From an uncultured Opitutales bacterium (GTDB lineage Bacteria; Verrucomicrobiota; Verrucomicrobiia; Opitutales; CAZEFS01): DNA of 34,932 nt. The position numbers and the translations under genes are program-made. The stretch covers positions 1-34,932 of the forward strand of contig CAZEFS010000001.1 of assembly GCA_964511545.1 (NCBI GenBank), in the 5' to 3' direction. Shown here one piece after another: positions 2,604 to 20,353 of the stretch (position 1 is its first letter; every line of letters begins with the position of its first letter). The notes beneath the pieces were generated by a model, which was not told the DNA's origin, did no database searches, and worked only from the letters and a program-made list of their open reading frames with translations.

Positions 2604-3027
2604 AAGAAGAGAGCTGGAGCGTTCGCCTCTTTTAGCCTAAAAACTAAGAGGGGAGGAAAGTCCGGACACCGCAAGGCACGCCTCCTCATGAAAATGAGGG
2701 CTTCCTGGGCTATACCCAGGGGGATGGACAGTGTCACAGAAAATATACCGCTTTCCAGGGAAGGCTTTTAGCTTTTTCGAAGAAGTAAGGGTGAAATGGT
2801 AGGGTAAGAGCCTACCGCTAGCCTTGGCAACAAGCTAGGCACGAAAAACCCAGGCGGGTGCAAGGCAAAATAAGAGATACGGGCCGCCTGCCCAAGGAGA
2901 AGCGCCTCTATGCTTCTTCGAATATCTCGGGTATGCTGCATCAGATAAATGAACGCAAAAAGCAAAGTTTAAGGGTTCACCTGAGACCTAGTTTTTACAG
3001 AATCCGGCTTATGAAGGCTCTCTTCTT
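2604..3027 (+). ncRNA. rnpB: RNase P RNA, bacterial type A
   Basis: Conserved blocks GAGGAAAGTCCGGAC (P4 5' side), ACAGAAAATATACCGC, GGGTGAAATGGTAGGGTAAGAGCCTACCGC and ACAGAATCCGGCTTATG (P4 3' side). P1 pairing joins AAGAAGAGAGC (2604-2614) to GCTCTCTTCTT (3017-3027). Confidence 0.92.
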
Positions 3028-3031
3028 TTTT

Positions 3032-3167
3032 CTTTTATAGTCGATTCAGTTGAACTAGCGTACAGAAGTTGATCCTCTAAGGTAAAACAATTCATAATTT
3101 TGAAAGCTATTGAAATCCATTCATTCCTTTTTTAGATACGCTAGCTCAACTGAATTTACTATAAAAG
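3032..3167. repeat. 136-bp palindromic element: 31-nt inverted repeats (28/31) around a 74-nt AT-rich core, MITE-like or a long terminator for rnpB
   Basis: Left arm CTTTTATAGTCGATTCAGTTGAACTAGCGTA (3032-3062). Right arm TACGCTAGCTCAACTGAATTTACTATAAAAG (3137-3167). Confidence 0.6.
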
Positions 3168-3405
3168 TGACTAGCCTGGGTTGATTTTGAATAGACCTCT
3201 TGTCAAACCCTAGACTCCTTGGGCAACCCTTGTCTTGTCCTCCCGGAGGGCCTCAAACCTGCATTCGAAGCCCTTGTTTACGCCTTGGGTGAGACCTTTT
3301 TGATATCTCTTAGCTACGGCCCAAGCTTTTAGATCGTTTCCAAAGAGATCTATTCTGGCATATTCCTAGAAGATCTTGTCTTCAAAGGACGCTTTAGCTT
3401 AGCCA

Positions 3406-5076
3406 CTATCGTGCCCTTTTTGTCCGAGGGGCGTTTAAGGATCCTTCTTGTTTCTCTTCTATAGCCTTGAGTAAGCGCTCTTGCTCTTCGGTATCTTTTA
3501 CAGTCTCCTCCACTACTGCTTTACGAAAGTCTGGATGCAGTTCAGTACGAGTGACGATAGCCGTGATAAGATCTGTTTTTGCGTCATCCGAAGCCAGATC
3601 ATACAGCCTACGAAATGCTACGAAATGATTCTGAAGCGGTTCCTCTTCCAATAGATCTTCCTCTTTTACTAGAGGCCAGTTTTGACATAGGGTTGTTATG
3701 ACGAGATTTTTTATTTTAGTATCAAGAATGCCTTCTACAAAAGCTATCGCTGCATGCATGGAGCGAAAAGCATCAATGCTCAAAATATTGGCAATAATAG
3801 AAGGATAGAATTCTTCTTGTATTCTTTGATTCATGATCAGCTGTGCAGCCCTCAGTCGATAGTGGATAGGTCTTACTGTAGGATCTTGATCGATAGCATA
3901 AGGCCACAGACGCATTCCAGTATCTACTTGAGGATCTTGAGCGATCGAAAGACAAACTGCATCGCGTTGAGTAGTGTCTTCGATTCGCTCAGCAGCTCTC
4001 AGGCGATCGGCAGGATATACTTTAAGATCTTGAGCGATAGAAAGATAAGCTGCATCGCGCTGAGTAGCGTCTTGGATCCGCTCTGCAGCCCTCAGGCGAT
4101 CGGCAGTATCTACTTTAAGATCTTGAGCGATAGAAAGGCAAATCGCATCGCGCTGAGTAGCGTCTTGGATTCGCTCCGCAGCCCTCAGGCGCTTGGCAGG
4201 ATATACTTTAAGATCTTGAGCGATAGAAAGGCAAATCGCATCCACTACATCACGCTGGTTAAAATCTTTTATCCGCTCTGCAGCCTGTAGGCGATTGTTG
4301 ATATCTACGGTAAGATCTTGAACGATGAAAAGATAAGCTGCACCGTTCTGGGTAGCCTCTTTGATCAACTCCGCAGCCCGTAGGCGATCATTGATATCTA
4401 TTTTAGGATTTTGAGCGATAGAAAGGTAAGCTGAATTGCGCTGGGGATATCCTTGGATCGCTTCTATGGATCTCAGGCGATTATCGAGATCGATCTTAGG
4501 ATCTTGAGCGATACAAAGATAAGCTGCATCGCGCTGGGGATAGGCTTGGATCATCTTCGCAGCATTCAGGCGATTATTGGGATCGACCTTAGGATCTTGA
4601 GCGATGCAAAGATAAGCTGCATCGCACTGAGTACCCTCTTGGATTAGGTTTGCAGCATTCAGGCGACAGAAGCTACTTACCTTAGGATCTTGAGCGATGG
4701 AAAGATAAGCTCTATCACGCTGAGTACCCTCTTGGATCAGCTCTGCAGCCTTTATGCGCTTGCTGGTAGGTACGTTACAATCTTGAGCGATAGAAAGATA
4801 AGCTCTATCGCGTTGGGTATCGTCTTGGATCCATTTTGCAGTCATCAGACGCTCATTGGTAAATTCTTGAGGATCTTCAGCGATGAAAAGAGCTTCCAGT
4901 TCCACCATATTCCCCGGAGCTTCAGCTAAATGGCCTTGTATGGCTGGATTGGCTTCTTGCTGGCTTATAGGCTGATTGGCTTGGTCTGAAGCTGTCTTGC
5001 GGCTTTGATCCGCCTGAGAACTGGCATTGTGTAGACTCTTTCCACCTGGATTAGATATGTTAGTTTGTGTATGCAT
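3406..5076 (-). CDS. Tandem-repeat protein with 11-12 copies of a 31-33 aa HEAT/PBS-lyase-like helical repeat, a polar disordered N-terminus and a basic C-terminal tail
   Basis: 556-aa ORF. The unit AAYLSIAQDPKVDxxxRLRAAERIQDATQRD is reiterated. The protein ends in PRTKRAR. No Shine-Dalgarno motif; AT-rich upstream region. Confidence 0.8.
   Translation of the reverse strand: MHTQTNISNPGGKSLHNASSQADQSRKTASDQANQPISQQEANPAIQGHLAEAPGNMVELEALFIAEDPQEFTNERLMTAKWIQDDTQRDRAYLSIAQDCNVPTSKRIKAAELIQEGTQRDRAYLSIAQDPKVSSFCRLNAANLIQEGTQCDAAYLCIAQDPKVDPNNRLNAAKMIQAYPQRDAAYLCIAQDPKIDLDNRLRSIEAIQGYPQRNSAYLSIAQNPKIDINDRLRAAELIKEATQNGAAYLFIVQDLTVDINNRLQAAERIKDFNQRDVVDAICLSIAQDLKVYPAKRLRAAERIQDATQRDAICLSIAQDLKVDTADRLRAAERIQDATQRDAAYLSIAQDLKVYPADRLRAAERIEDTTQRDAVCLSIAQDPQVDTGMRLWPYAIDQDPTVRPIHYRLRAAQLIMNQRIQEEFYPSIIANILSIDAFRSMHAAIAFVEGILDTKIKNLVITTLCQNWPLVKEEDLLEEEPLQNHFVAFRRLYDLASDDAKTDLITAIVTRTELHPDFRKAVVEETVKDTEEQERLLKAIEEKQEGSLNAPRTKRAR
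3840..4890 (-). repeat. Coding tandem repeat, period 93-99 bp, about 11 units
   Basis: The core GATCTTGAGCGATAGAAAG(A/G)TAAGCTGCATCGCG recurs near 3932, 4026, 4118, 4212, 4311, 4406, 4500, 4593, 4686, 4778 and 4872. Confidence 0.9.
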
Positions 5077-14489: not shown

Positions 14490-14577
<88 letters not shown>

Positions 14578-14662
14578 GCTTTCGTTCTACGAACTACAGC
14601 TGGCAGGCCAAATTTATTTTAACGAAAGCTGTCCGCCGAAGCCTTAGCGAAGGAGGACTACT
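14578..14662 (+). repeat. Structured GC-rich linker between the tRNA-Ser 3' end and the GIY-YIG gene
   Basis: 9-bp stem GCTTTCGTT (14578-14586) / AACGAAAGC (about 14622-14630). Inner GTTC-TAC-GAAC hairpin. AGCTGGCAGG can pair with the tRNA 3' end CCGCCAGCT. The CCGAAGCC and AGCGAAGG motifs recur in the other GC-rich elements. It ends in a canonical AAGGAGG 6 nt before the ATG. Confidence 0.5.
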
Positions 14663-16524: not shown

Positions 16525-17477
16525 TCATAGCACCTTACCCAGAGGAATATCGCTTGAGTCCGATGAATGATGAGCAGGATCATCAAACGGCATTGCTGTA
16601 TAGCCGTTTTTGAGATAAAATCTTAAGCTGCCCTGCCTCGATTCTACATGGATACTTTTGATGCCTGATGCTTTCAACCACTGCCTGATTAAGGCCAAAA
16701 ATTGACTACCCAAGCTTTGATTACGCTGATTCTCATCCACTACTATGATACGAATCGCCGCCCTTTGCTCAGACCAGAACTGAATATGGGCGTAAGCTAT
16801 AATCTCTGTACCTTGATATAAAACCAGATGGACATGCGCTTCATGATGAAATGTCCAGGTATAGGGGTCTTCTAGGCATTGAGGCTCAAAAAAATACTTA
16901 TCTCGAAAATGCTTCGCAGCAGCCCACTCAGTAGCGTCACTGCACTTCAGCATCCGAACTCTATTAAACCCCGCTTCTCTCAAAACGCTTCGAATAAAAT
17001 CGCCCTTGCGGAGCGTGTAATTTGTGAAAAGTGAATTTTCTTTATTCAATGATGATTCGTCTTGGATCAACTCCTTCTTAAGCTGGGCATAATCATCTCG
17101 TCTGTTCGGATGATTTCGTAGGTAATCCCTAAACATTAGGTTTAATTCAATTTCCGGATGAAATGCTTCGTATACATGAAGATTCAGGTCGATCTCTCCT
17201 CGCTTACTGAAACCATAGTGCAAGGGGATGTTGTATTCGCCTTTATGCTTCAGACCAATTGTCTCTAGTTGCTGAATTGCAAAAAGGGGTTTTGCACCAC
17301 AGCGATCATATCAATCTTAGGCTTAGCAGGAAGCCCTGGCACTGCAGTGGAGCCAATGTGGTGTATCTCTAAAAGGTTACTCCCTAAGGCTTGCTTGATA
17401 TGTGCTGCCTCTGCCTCAAACATATAAGGCCAGCTTGGGTTGTAGGGAAGAATCTCAATGTTTTTTGTTTTACTCAT
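16525..17477 (-). pseudogene. GrpB (UPF0157 nucleotidyltransferase-fold) :: GNAT acetyltransferase fusion, interrupted by a 1-nt frameshift
   Basis: The 70-aa ORF (17265-17477) carries the GrpB N-terminus (HIGSTAVPGLPAKPKIDMIAVV). The 232-aa ORF continues the GrpB C-terminus in another frame (upstream extension reads KPLFAIQQLETIGLKHKGEYNIPL) and ends in a GNAT domain (IIVVDENQRNQSLGSQF...YLKNGY). The frames switch within the run AAAACCCCTTTTT (17281-17293). Confidence 0.75.
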
Positions 17478-18234
17478 GTGATTTTAACTCTAATACAATA
17501 AACGTTATTAATTCACGAATATCAAAACAGCGATGAGGATGATGCTTGAAGTCTGAACGCTTAAGGCAATCCAGCAAAGAGCATAGATTCAATAAATGGA
17601 TAGTGCTAGACCAAGTATCAGGTAAGTCAATACCGCTTTTTTTTAAAGCATTGATGAAAGAAGTTTGAAATACAGGTGGCATTTTATGAGCGTATCTAAG
17701 CATGCTAGCAATATCCCAAAGATAAGACCCTGAAAAAGCAAATTCCCAGTCTAAAATTGCACTCACTTTCCAAACGTCTTTCACCTTATTTACCAAAATG
17801 TTTGCTGGATCAAAATCCCCATGAACAAGATGCTGTCCTTCTAAATAAAAACCTTGAGACGATCTAGATCATAGATAGCTGTGTTGTTCGAGGATAGTAC
17901 TAATTGCTAAAATGCTATCTGCAGTCAGCACAGATAATACCGTCTCATGGCTTAAACAATTCTTGGCACATTTTAAAACATCAGTACATGGGTAAGGCAT
18001 CACTCTTAATGCTTTATCCAAAAAACCTGTTTCTAAAAATGAATGCGATGCAATGCTTGATAGAGTCATGCCTACTTCATGCATGATTGCATTAAGGTCA
18101 TAAGGAACGTCTCCTAGCAAAAGATCCCGAAGGGGCATACCTGGCATAAACTCTGTAATGGCAAAGTGATACCCTGCAAGTTCACCGATGTAATACGTTA
18201 ACGGTACAGGTACGGTTTTTTTTATGAATGTTGC
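17470..18234 (-). pseudogene. Aminoglycoside/choline-kinase-type phosphotransferase (APH family), C-terminal two thirds, with an in-frame TGA
   Basis: Motifs HGDFDPANILV and ILDWEFAFSG. The ORFs 17470-17796 and 17869-18147 are in the same frame, separated by a TGA at 17869-17871. The reading frame continues upstream to the IS boundary at 18234. Confidence 0.85.
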
Positions 18235-18592
18235 TTAAACTACCTGACAAAAAAAAGGGGTAAGTTAAAAGCTTGATGAACAGTGGGAAAGCTGGCATCA
18301 AGCTTTTATGAAAAAAAAACACACTTACCCGATGGGTAGGCCATATTATATCGCTAAATAAGTCAAGAGCAAAGTGCTTAATGAGAATGATGACGGGGAT
18401 GATTACGCTGAGAACGGTCAATTTGAACCGATTAAGCCAGGCTTTTCGGCCGACGGTTCAAGAGGCCTCACACGAGCGCACCATGAGTCGTTTTCTGAAA
18501 GAAATACAGATAAATCCACTGGAAATCCTTCGGATAGTTAGAGCTATGCTCGCTGCGAAAAAAATAGAATACTTATGCAAATAGGTATCGTT

Positions 18593-18748
18593 TTTGTTGG
18601 CTTGTCGGGCGTCTCCACTACGCCATCTCCACTGCGCTGAAGCCTTCAGGCGTCGCTCTTCCCCCTACGCTCCTTGAGCTACGGGAGACAGGTAGCTTTT
18701 AAAGCGACGTGTCGGGCGAAGCTCAACGAGCGAAGCCCGAAGCCTGAA
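18593..18748 (+). repeat. GC-rich module Q copy, with a module-P-like segment nested in its hairpin loop, inserted in the transposase gene
   Basis: Shares the three blocks listed for 473-572. Here the two halves of the CGTCGCT/AGCGACG stem are separated by about 44 nt (18660-18702) containing CCCCTACGC. Flanking inverted repeat GGCTTGTCGGGC (18599-18610) / GCCCGAAGCC (18735-18744). Confidence 0.7.
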
Positions 18749-19292
18749 TAGAACAAACTGGAAAAGGGGAAAAAAGCACTTAAATTTCTTATTTATAGCT
18801 TTGAAAACGCAGCATTGGACCATCCCCATATGGGTCTTGCCTATCTGTGAGCAAAAACAAGGCAATCATAGCTTAGCTCAGCTAGAATCAGCTCTGGAGG
18901 CCGTTTTGAAGATAATTCCTGCTAAAAAAATAGATTATTTTTTAGGAGATACTGAATTTGGAGCACTGAGCCGAATTAAGCTTTTTCAAGAGAAGGGAAT
19001 TCCCTATATAGTCCGCCTAAAAGAGGAGTGGAATTGGGCTTATCAAGGCGAAGAGCGTCGTTATATTCATGAATGGTTTCGCGGTTTACCCGTAGGGAAA
19101 AGCCGCACTTTAGTGTTACAATTGGGAGAAAAAGCTGAAGTGACTACTTCGGTAACCGCTAAACGCCTCAAAGATGACAGTCTAATTATTGTGGCACATA
19201 ATTCATCCAAAAGAAATCCTATAGACATTTATCGATCCAGATGGAGTATCGAAACTCTGTTTCGTTCCCTTAAAACTAACAAATTTAATAGA

Positions 19293-19433
19293 TCCCTTGC
19301 GAAAGTAGGTATTTTGACTCCTGGGCAGGAAAAAATAGATGAAGAACCGCAGTGTACAGAAGTACATGAGGATTCTGAATGTATTTTTGACGAACCCAGG
19401 GAGCAAAAGACTTCTTTTCCCAAGGGTTCTAGT
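19293..19433. repeat. Small palindromic (MITE-like) in-frame insertion in the transposase C-terminal region
   Basis: 32-nt imperfect inverted repeats (24/32) at 19294-19325 and 19395-19426. ATAGA occurs on both flanks (19288-19292 and 19434-19438). The encoded acidic, low-complexity stretch of about 48 aa lies between KTNKFN and IESTGVTDP, where IS4-type transposases are normally contiguous. Confidence 0.5.
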
Positions 19434-19696
19434 ATAGAATCTACAGGAGTTACAGACCCTTTGAAACTGCGAAATTTAATCCATATTATCATTTTATGCT
19501 TCCTTTTTGTTCTCGATCAAGCCCAATATCTTTTTTCAAAGTTTCCCATTCCTTTTATCATTAAGGCACATGGCTATCCCGCTAAAAGTTATTGGAGATC
19601 CTTCTTTGACCGAATCCAATCCATCATTTTTGACCAATTTATCCCCTTCTTTTCCGCTTCCTATGCGTCCTAATTTTTTTTTGTCAGGTAGTTTAA

Positions 19697-19937
19697 ATGT
19701 TGCTAGTTTTTGTTCTTGATAAGCAGCAGCTTTACTGCGCAAATAAAGACGCAAAATCAGTGGTTGGTTTACATTTTCCAACTGAATTTTATAATTAAGA
19801 TTAGCGCACCCGCCAGCAATCAATTCAAATGCAGTAAGTTTTTTATCAGGATAAGCAAGGTTTATCATTCTTTCTACCATGCTATCTGGCAGCTGATATG
19901 TAACGCTTACTTTTTCCCAAGAGTTTTTAAACATCAC
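19697..19937 (-). pseudogene. APH-family phosphotransferase, N-terminal third (severed from 17470-18234 by the IS)
   Basis: The N-terminus carries ELIAGGCANLNYKI and ILRLYLR. Removing the IS plus one ATGTTGC copy restores a continuous frame ...YQEQKLATFIKKTVPVPLTYYIGE... The start codon (GTG 19937 or ATG 19934) overlaps the upstream GNAT stop. Confidence 0.85.
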
Positions 19938-20353
19938 AAGCTCCGCTTTAAAAAGATACAGCTAGAACCGCGCGTATAGCCCGACCTTTCAAAATCACTT
20001 ACGTATCCCAATTTTTCATAGAATAATTTTGTGCTCTGAAAGCTCATTGTGGCAACGGTGGCCATTGAACATCCTGATTTACGTCCATAGTCATGAACTG
20101 CTTCCATTAATTGATGTCCTAAGCCATTCTTACGATGAGCTGGATGTACCCATAATTGATCGGTATAAAGGCTGCCGAAAATGATACTCCCGTTGCAGCC
20201 TGCAATGATCTGATTGTCCTTATCTCTTATAAAAAATGCAAAAGGATGAGCTTCACCGAATTCAGGCGTTTCTTGATTGATTTTTTGTGTTAGAAAATCA
20301 ATATCTCCACTGGCACCTGTAGATGCATATTGAAGATCTAATGAAGATTCCAT
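19934..20353 (-). CDS. GNAT-family N-acetyltransferase
   Basis: 139 aa. Acetyl-CoA-binding motif QLWVHPAHRKNGLGHQLMEAV and the terminal FYEKLGY. Confidence 0.85.
   Translation of the reverse strand: MESSLDLQYASTGASGDIDFLTQKINQETPEFGEAHPFAFFIRDKDNQIIAGCNGSIIFGSLYTDQLWVHPAHRKNGLGHQLMEAVHDYGRKSGCSMATVATMSFQSTKLFYEKLGYVSDFERSGYTRGSSCIFLKRSL

Follow-up and report, generated by a model that had tools for sequence, protein, structure and literature searches.

Several families of small repeats described in bacteria resemble the elements discussed here. BOX elements of S. pneumoniae and S. suis are composite and MITE-like: the modules at their ends are conserved, and those in between vary in number (boxA-boxB(n)-boxC; PMC3049150). 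They are 67–637 bp long (Croucher et al. 2011, PMC3049150), as compared with 45–585 nt for the family described below, which has the same kind of layout. In both cases, the elements fold strongly, contain open frames on either strand, lack an identified transposase of their own, and change in length through the gain and loss of modules. The likeness is one of architecture only, and no sequence relationship is expected. Unlike BOX, with its tandem copies of a single boxB, the present family holds GC-rich tagged hairpins in both orientations, and its host belongs to the Verrucomicrobiota.

A second comparison is with REP, BIME and REPIN repeats, including the GTAG- and CGTC-tagged superfamilies (PMC3733652). 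These are short GC-rich imperfect palindromes with an unpaired tag at one end, as are the 29-nt hairpin units of the present family, and both occur as singletons, inverted pairs and clusters, at times within genes or longer palindromes (PMC3733652). The complement of the unit tag, CACGTC, contains CGTC, as in CGTC-tagged REPs, at two nt from the stem. The text of the same paper describes CGTC families 1–4 as having an 8–9 bp stem that starts with A/T pairs, a 4–5 nt loop, a CCA tail and a terminal CGTC (PMC3733652); by that description, the present units stand apart, with a 6 + 4 bp stem, a 3 × 3 internal loop, a 3-nt loop and an AG(CC) tail. The units further differ from REPs in that most lie inside elements bounded by terminal inverted repeats (TIRs), and in that no RAYT was found in ~345 kb. 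Opitutus terrae has been singled out as a REP-rich species, intragenic REPs included (Di Nocera et al. 2013, PMC3733652).

Third, QMITE2 of Coxiella burnetii is, like the present family, a MITE that encloses a REP and comes in larger and smaller forms (Wachter et al. 2018, PMC5896051). In QMITE2, the direct repeats measure 7–11 nt and the one REP, of the GTAG type, is targeted by IS1111 (PMC5896051), whereas the present elements hold arrays of several units, and here the element lies within the insertion sequence (IS) rather than the reverse. Lastly, RUP (S. pneumoniae), Correia (Neisseria) and RPE (Rickettsia) elements are, like the present family, small, palindromic and non-autonomous, but they are simple, non-modular and of fixed length, with other termini and hosts. 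According to a passage in PMC3049150, RUP has been proposed to prefer insertion into or near IS elements.

Here, we describe a locus in the window (the whole stretch of DNA analyzed, 34,932 nt) that combines features of these systems. Here, a degenerate IS4-family element harbors a truncated, lineage-specific MITE that is modular and has a REP-like interior. This MITE is no new kind of mobile element: repeats nested in IS, modular MITEs and REP-bearing MITEs have all been described already. The locus documents the erosion of insertion sequences by small palindromic repeats, and the family of this MITE illustrates cleanly how slippage and exchange between copies reshuffle the interior of a modular MITE.

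The insertion sequence and its transposase gene

The host IS occupies 18236–19695 on the plus strand (1,460 nt), as shown by its terminal inverted repeats (IRs), its match to DDE_Tnp_1 and its collinearity with an intact relative on contig L001. The IRs have 22-nt arms that are 100% complementary (18235/6–18256 and 19675–19695/6), and a direct 9-bp target duplication, AATGTTGCT, lies on either side (left copy, 18227–18235; right copy, 19696–19704), as is characteristic of IS4-family elements. The transposase matches Pfam DDE_Tnp_1 with E = 1.9e-9, and its named database homologues are called “IS4 family transposase”. In the alignment of homologues, the Y(2)R(3)E(6)K signature of the IS4 family is present, with Y284, R287, E291 and K298 invariant; D190 and E192 are likewise invariant. 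The first catalytic Asp, which homologues carry in the motif DRTNW, is gone from the window copy.

The N-terminal part of the transposase gene lies at 18308–18564 (plus strand), with an ATG at 18308 followed by a run of nine A residues (18311–18319). The 67-aa ORF at 18381–18584 is the in-frame remainder of this part of the gene; it shares a frame with the 290-aa ORF at 18801–19673, with three stops between the two. The closest intact relative is P0002, a 353-aa transposase encoded on L001, a contig from activated sludge that is collinear with the window IS at ~92% nucleotide identity. L001 lacks two segments of the window IS: a GC-rich one, and an in-frame one of 144 nt at 19289–19432. The window IS is dead; the GC-rich segment is an insertion into it, since the intact relative lacks that segment. 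The run of A residues after the start codon (18308–18320) is also 1 nt out of frame relative to L001 (ATGAAAATCGAAAAACTT), and this frameshift is a third, independent lesion of the window copy.

The preliminary description of this DNA had placed a GC-rich element at the first catalytic Asp of an IS4-type transposase, with LNRTNW following it, and had taken the segment to be foreign to the IS. Both points hold: all intact homologues read DRTNW at this position, and none of those compared, i.e., L001 and >80 further homologues, carries the segment. The “N” of LNRTNW is an AAT codon that belongs to the element, rather than a mutated Asp codon. A contrary reading, to which we give practically no credence, is that the segment is native to the IS lineage, e.g., as an optional domain or a regulatory hairpin. 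All that speaks for it is the presence of the segment in two IS copies, that of the window and that of locus L141; against it, the segment brings in three in-frame stops and eliminates the invariant Asp; neither the 353-aa intact relative nor any of 85 other homologues has the segment; and its component units recur across the genome.

The copies of the inserted element used for comparison all derive from JACCDN, a single short-read metagenome assembly (GCA_013558295.1), in which contig JACCDN010627048.1 also encodes the product of a gene neighboring the locus in the window. No intact copy of the IS was seen among the JACCDN contigs in a 331-kb sample, and IS fragments in the sample bear arrays or elements at at least five IS positions (~170, 330, 1056, 1246 and 1340). 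The window begins within the right end of a further, related copy of the IS (1–22; …TTTTTGTCAGGTAGT). In contig L033/L054 (JACCDN010627048.1), which overlaps the window, this copy has a GC-rich hairpin array fused at IS position ~1340, a junction also present in L153, L073, L119 and L126. In L096 (679–913), ~235 nt comprise the first ~85 nt and the last ~69 nt of the IS; this is a classical IS-derived MITE of the IS4 element, separate from the TAGACC family described below. As for the surroundings of the IS in the window, it interrupts a minus-strand gene, an APH-like pseudogene with fragments at 17470–18235 and 19696–19937. The APH phosphotransferase match of this gene is weak (E = 4e-4, under the Pfam cut-off), the gene is itself split into several ORFs, and a GNAT acetyltransferase gene adjoins at 19934–20353.

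A family of modular palindromic elements

The GC-rich segment belongs to a family of elements whose source organism in JACCDN is a member of the Verrucomicrobiota with 41% GC. Its RpoA has its best named relatives in the Opitutaceae, at ~68% identity, and a Chlamydiae-like host was rejected for this reason. In a metagenome scan, GACGTGTYRGGCRWAGYTC, which is the reverse complement of the 3′ half of the hairpin unit, matched at least 118 loci, ~40 of them from JACCDN; among the at least 118 loci listed, none from outside JACCDN carries the family. Family statistics refer to 331 kb, i.e., the JACCDN loci listed and the window, which together are a motif-selected part of one genome. The termini of the family are TAGACCTCTTGC… on the left and …GCAAGAGGTCTA on the right, with conservation extending to ~40 nt. 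At least ~35–40 complete, TIR-bounded copies of 45–585 nt are present in the loci listed and the window. The elements have the traits of MITEs: they are small and non-coding, they have TIRs, and the many copies are dispersed among unrelated flanks. When short and long copies are aligned, they share an AT-rich backbone of ~143 nt that folds into a single long hairpin, and GC-rich arrays lie at the same interior positions; most copies contain such an interior array of 29-nt GC-rich hairpin units.

Searches of other collections placed no outside relative beside the family. A scan of the window against Rfam 15 at gathering thresholds returned RNase P and a tRNA only, and within 18200–19700 there were sub-threshold matches to generic hairpins and no matching family. 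Blastn of the family against a plasmid collection gave no match, and a pseudo-protein made from the stop-free translations of the element (≥25 residues, six frames) had no match in the protein database at E ≤ 0.01. A genome-collection scan with the 18-mer AGCCTTCAGGCGTCGCTC gave 31 single matches, all in GC-rich unrelated genomes, which is chance level.

Two complete members lie in the window on the plus strand. The first, “Q copy A” (445–600, 156 nt), has the termini TAAACCTCTTGG… and …TTCGCAAGAGGTCTA and a hairpin unit at 533–561. The second (19289–19431, 143 nt) consists of backbone only, lacks GC units, is bounded by family termini, and lies in frame within the IS. Downstream of the RNase P RNA is a probable degenerate member (3192–3352, plus strand), with TAGACCTCTTGTC… at one end, …CCAAAGAGATCTA at the other, and a 28/37 match to the family terminus at 3211. 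The GC-rich stretch at 295–444, which abuts Q copy A, holds two cores of the sequence CCCCTACGC and a different module (…TTAGAGCTGAAATTACGC…GTAGGCGAA…) that also adjoins family termini in L036, L037, L121, L126, L142 and L147. This stretch, the “module P” of the preliminary description, is probably part of an adjacent partial element.

The GC-rich segment in the IS, “Q copy B”, is a right-truncated member at 18565–18749 (plus strand), with a left terminus (TAGAATACTTATGCAAATAGGTATCGTTTTTGTTGGC), a GC-rich hairpin array inside, and no right terminus. It starts at 18565 with TAGAATACTTATGC… and ends at ~18749 with …GCCTGAAT, a string that is element sequence in other family copies. Between 18565 and 18601, 26 of 37 positions are identical to family left termini, above the 99.99th percentile of all positions in the window; higher scores are found only at other family termini, except for 446, which is a 1-nt offset of the terminus at 445. 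Q copy B also aligns to the family backbone. That 18565–18601 is a family terminus explains why this stretch cannot sensibly be aligned to L001, although the flanking IS is ~90–95% identical to it. A left boundary at 18593, with 18565–18592 as diverged IS, was rejected, since that stretch matches the family terminus and aligns to the backbone. Alignment to the intact IS upholds the insertion claimed in the preliminary description, and the match to family termini moves its left boundary from 18593 to 18565.

On the right, 26 nt of the IS (TCAATAAAATAGGATTAATAGTGGAT), including the Asp codon, have been lost together with the terminus of Q copy B. The net change in the length of the IS is +159 nt, and the 67-aa and 290-aa ORFs are therefore still in frame; Q copy B introduces the three in-frame stops into the transposase gene and removes its first catalytic Asp codon. 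The right junction, …GCCTGAAT|AGAACAAACTGG, is found in the window only, and the loss of the right end by deletion is accordingly a reconstruction. We consider it probable that 18565–18749 is a truncated copy of a lineage-specific, non-autonomous palindromic MITE in an IS4-family transposase gene and that its right end was lost later. The MITE would have entered the IS after …GCGAAAAAAA, at IS position ~330, and a subsequent deletion would have taken its right terminus together with the 26 nt of IS that held the GAT codon for the first catalytic Asp.

The backbone-only member at 19289–19431 is better preserved. It forms a near-perfect hairpin (z = −6.05) and adds 144 nt, i.e., 48 aa with no stops, to the transposase gene 5 residues past the lysine of the YREK signature. 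The segment is missing from L001 and from all transposase homologues, and the same site is also occupied in L126 and L141. It provides the single pair of empty and filled sites: L001 is empty (AATTTAAT|ATAGAATC), and the window and L141 are filled. On the assumption that the element is AGAT…ATCT, the pair would fit a 3-nt AAT duplication; read by eye, an ANT repeat flanks only ~16 of 30 family copies. The earlier statement that these repeats were mobile is borne out by the precise termini, the dozens of copies, and this one filled/empty pair. In work from 2000 attributed to Ogata et al., RPEs are said to insert in frame within coding genes, and the insertion at 19289–19431 resembles such in-frame insertions. 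The 278-aa database protein P0001, which is 100% identical and labeled a “transposase”, includes the 48 MITE-encoded residues; this serves as a warning for annotation.

Hairpin units and the supposed nested module

The interior arrays are built from hairpin units of 29 nt, each with a 6-bp outer stem, a 3 × 3 internal loop, a GYTC/GARC inner stem and a 3-nt loop. There are 80 such units in the JACCDN loci listed and the window, against 0–1 in 20 shuffles. Among the 80, the outer stems covary, with TCAGGC/GCCTGA in 22, TCGGGC/GCCCGA in 13, TCCCCC/GGGNGA in ~6 and TCGCCC/GGGGGA in 4, and the inner stem is GCTC/GAGC in 68 and GTTC/GAAC in 12. A GACGTG tag is present at exactly one end of 56 of the 80 units and at both ends of none, and the oriented consensus is (C)GACGTG-TCRGGC-RWA-GYTC-NNN-GARC-GAA-GCCYGA. 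The units are REP-like in these properties: they are short imperfect palindromes with compensatory variation and a conserved one-sided tag.

Q copy B holds three parts of such an array, all on the plus strand: (i) at 18644–18658, the half-unit CTTCAGGCGTCGCTC, i.e., the 5′ half of a U-type hairpin without its canonical 3′ partner; (ii) at 18660–18688, a complete V-type unit, TCCCCC-TAC-GCTC-CTT-GAGC-TAC-GGGAGA, which contains CCCCTACGC; and (iii) at 18706–18740, a GACGTG tag followed by a U-type unit, TCGGGC-GAA-GCTC-AAC-GAGC-GAA-GCCCGA. The preliminary description had noted three conserved blocks of a module “Q” in the same order here and at 473–572, and direct reading agrees with this. The 16-mers GGCCTGCCGGGCGTCT (481–496) and GGCTTGTCGGGCGTCT (18599–18614) differ at 2 positions, the 15-mers AGCGACGTGTCAGGC and AGCGACGTGTCGGGC at 1, and the 19-mer AGCCTTCAGGCGTCGCTCT is identical at all 19 positions in 502–520 and 18641–18659, which are its only matches in the window even at 3 mismatches (0 expected). 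The reported splitting of a stem is likewise real, with CGTCGCT at 18651–18657 and AGCGACG at 18702–18708, 44 nt apart. Between them lies the core of “module P”, CCCCTACGC, at 18662–18670; the window has 4 copies of this core, against 0.12 expected.

What does not survive is the account given of this arrangement, in which a simple Q, as at 473–572, entered the IS, and P then entered the hairpin loop of Q. We consider that sequence of events very improbable. The 44-nt interval does contain a complete, self-contained unit (18660–18688), and the sequences flanking this unit do form an 8-bp stem in Q copy A. However, the stem, CGTCGCTC/GAGCGACG, exists in Q copy A only, there is no duplication around the 44-nt interval, and the predicted fold of Q copy B makes no use of the CGTCGCT/AGCGACG stem. 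In the JACCDN loci listed and the window, CAGGCGTCG[CT]TC is followed 13 times by its canonical partner NNN-GA[GA]CTAT, six times by the V unit TTCCCCCTACGC (twice in L073, and once each in L081, L097, L144 and the window), and once, at 473–572 in the window, by NNN-GAGCGACG. The junction GCGTCG(C/T)TC|TTCCCCCTACGC thus occurs in five elements other than Q copy B, and in these AGCGACG is absent or 104 nt away. The 8-bp hairpin of Q copy A is the exceptional arrangement, because its junction occurs once as against 13 and six times for the others; the junction of Q copy B is common and inherited.

The spacing in Q copy B can be traced through L073. Q copy B is 95–97% identical to an element in L073, its closest relative, on either side of 62 nt that are present in L073 but not in Q copy B, and the 62-nt stretch is flanked by CGGG(A/C)GACA repeats. 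Judging from these two sequences, the 44-nt spacing appears to have arisen by a slippage-type deletion of 62 nt from an L073-like array, rather than by a second transposition; such a deletion would have placed an ordinary hairpin unit beside AGCGACG. What was called a “nested module” is a single 29-nt hairpin unit of the type standard in these arrays, and Q and P are parts of one modular family, not the two separate elements they had been taken for.

Movement and rearrangement of the elements

The family copies would have been moved in trans, into A/T-rich AAT/ATT sites, by a transposase that recognizes their termini. No autonomous partner was visible in the preliminary description, and a wider search gives the same result: in 331 kb, a fraction of one genome, no pair of family TIRs encloses an ORF, and tblastn with seven published RAYT/TIRYT queries (from E. 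coli, O. terrae, R. baltica, Pseudomonas and others; PMC3733652, Additional file 5) gave no match at E < 0.1 in ~345 kb, part of the genome. The IRs of the IS4 element itself (TAAACTACCTGACAAAA) are unrelated to the family termini. One candidate autonomous element, L078 5275–6913, was rejected, being an IS-end remnant beside unrelated genes.

Two JACCDN loci bear on the order of events. L141 is a second copy of the IS with other flanks; it has the same left junction at the first insertion site (18565 in the window), including the diverged terminus. Its interior units differ, and on its right side it enters the right terminus of the element at the second site (19289 in the window), with the middle of the IS deleted. 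L126 has the left junction of the second site, a long array (436 nt), and a right flank that is not IS. Both look like products of recombination between family copies. An interpretation of L126 as an in-situ gain of three GC blocks is weakened, as its non-IS right flank recurs elsewhere. The preliminary description had concluded that the repeats moved after the IS arrived. This fails for the first site: because L141 has the same left junction in different flanks, the insertion there is older than at least one of the two IS copies.

It is also shown that the interior array alters by deletion and by exchange between copies, with short repeated motifs as homology, and the same blocks therefore recur in differing orders. 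In a single short-read assembly, repeat-induced chimeras may add to this apparent mosaicism, above all in L141 and L126. One could go further and propose that gene conversion or ectopic recombination brought the segment into the window IS from some other IS or MITE copy, or that the contig itself is a repeat-induced assembly chimera. L141 has an identical left junction, and the arrangement therefore does spread from one IS copy to another; both L141 and L126 are hybrid, with sides from different lineages, the left part of L141 being ~95% and its right part ~80% identical to the window IS; and the data are a short-read metagenome assembly. Nevertheless, we find this proposal quite improbable. 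Conversion merely shifts the question to the donor copy, in which the insertion must have occurred, and the window IS is collinear on either side of the segment, is longer by a net 159 nt, and has perfect IRs between the two copies of its 9-bp target duplication.

A different alternative to insertion of a MITE is that the 29-nt tagged hairpins are the mobile entities themselves, REP/REPIN-like and dependent for movement on an HUH tyrosine transposase (RAYT) or some other enzyme, and that they invade MITE backbones and IS copies site-specifically; the segment would then be a REP cluster. We retain this reading, the main rival though an unlikely one, because some units are solitary, including hairpins right after tRNA genes. 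The few solitary cases lie in unique sequence or beside tRNA genes (L098 344, L073 2904 and window 14575), and 33 of the 80 units have no family terminus within 600 nt, although many such “terminus-less” units are at contig ends or in rearranged elements. The same reading draws on the GC-rich imperfect palindromes with their covarying stems and one-sided tag, and on an array in L141 that has no termini and substitutes for 53 nt of the IS. Backbone-only copies exist, and independent copies have arrays at the same backbone positions. The related species O. terrae is REP-rich, intragenic REPs included (PMC3733652). However, at its left edge the segment has a family terminus that precisely abuts the IS, as insertion of a MITE predicts. 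L126, first taken as an in-situ gain, has a non-collinear right flank and is better explained by recombination. The failure to find a RAYT or TIRYT in ~345 kb counts in the same direction, with the proviso that a single-copy gene could easily be elsewhere.

A related idea is that the GACGTG-tagged hairpins are an active REP-like system that colonizes the MITE backbone at fixed positions as well as IS copies (i.e., REP in MITE in IS), maybe without a classical RAYT. We regard this as unlikely. If it were true, such a system could help explain how “orphan” REPs of the CGTC type proliferate, a question left open by Di Nocera et al. 2013 (PMC3733652).

Hairpins of the same architecture also occur at the ends of tRNA genes. 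At 14575–14603, the hairpin CCAGCT-TTC-GTTC-TAC-GAAC-TAC-AGCTGG, which has a different outer stem, overlaps the 3′ end of tRNA-Ser (14490–14577). At ~2904 in L073, a tRNA gene is followed by a solitary unit and then by a T/A run, an arrangement like that of an intrinsic terminator. The units may also function as terminators, or they may have originated from them.

The flank of the intact IS in L001 (1167–1369) is 96.6% identical to 1054–1256 of L117, a JACCDN locus. L117 has a TAGACC-family MITE (1261–1665) at nearly the same position at which L001 has the IS. It follows from the identity of the flanks that a close relative of the host lives in another metagenome, with different mobile-element content.

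Other repeats are present in the window. At least eight tandem copies of a 93-nt unit, 66–74% identical, lie at 3829–4881, inside a 556-aa minus-strand ORF (3406–5076) without a confident Pfam match. The bacterial RNase P RNA (2606–3029; 205.9 bits) is followed by a 31-nt inverted repeat (3032–3062 and 3137–3167; 90% complementary), after which comes the degenerate family member at 3192–3352.
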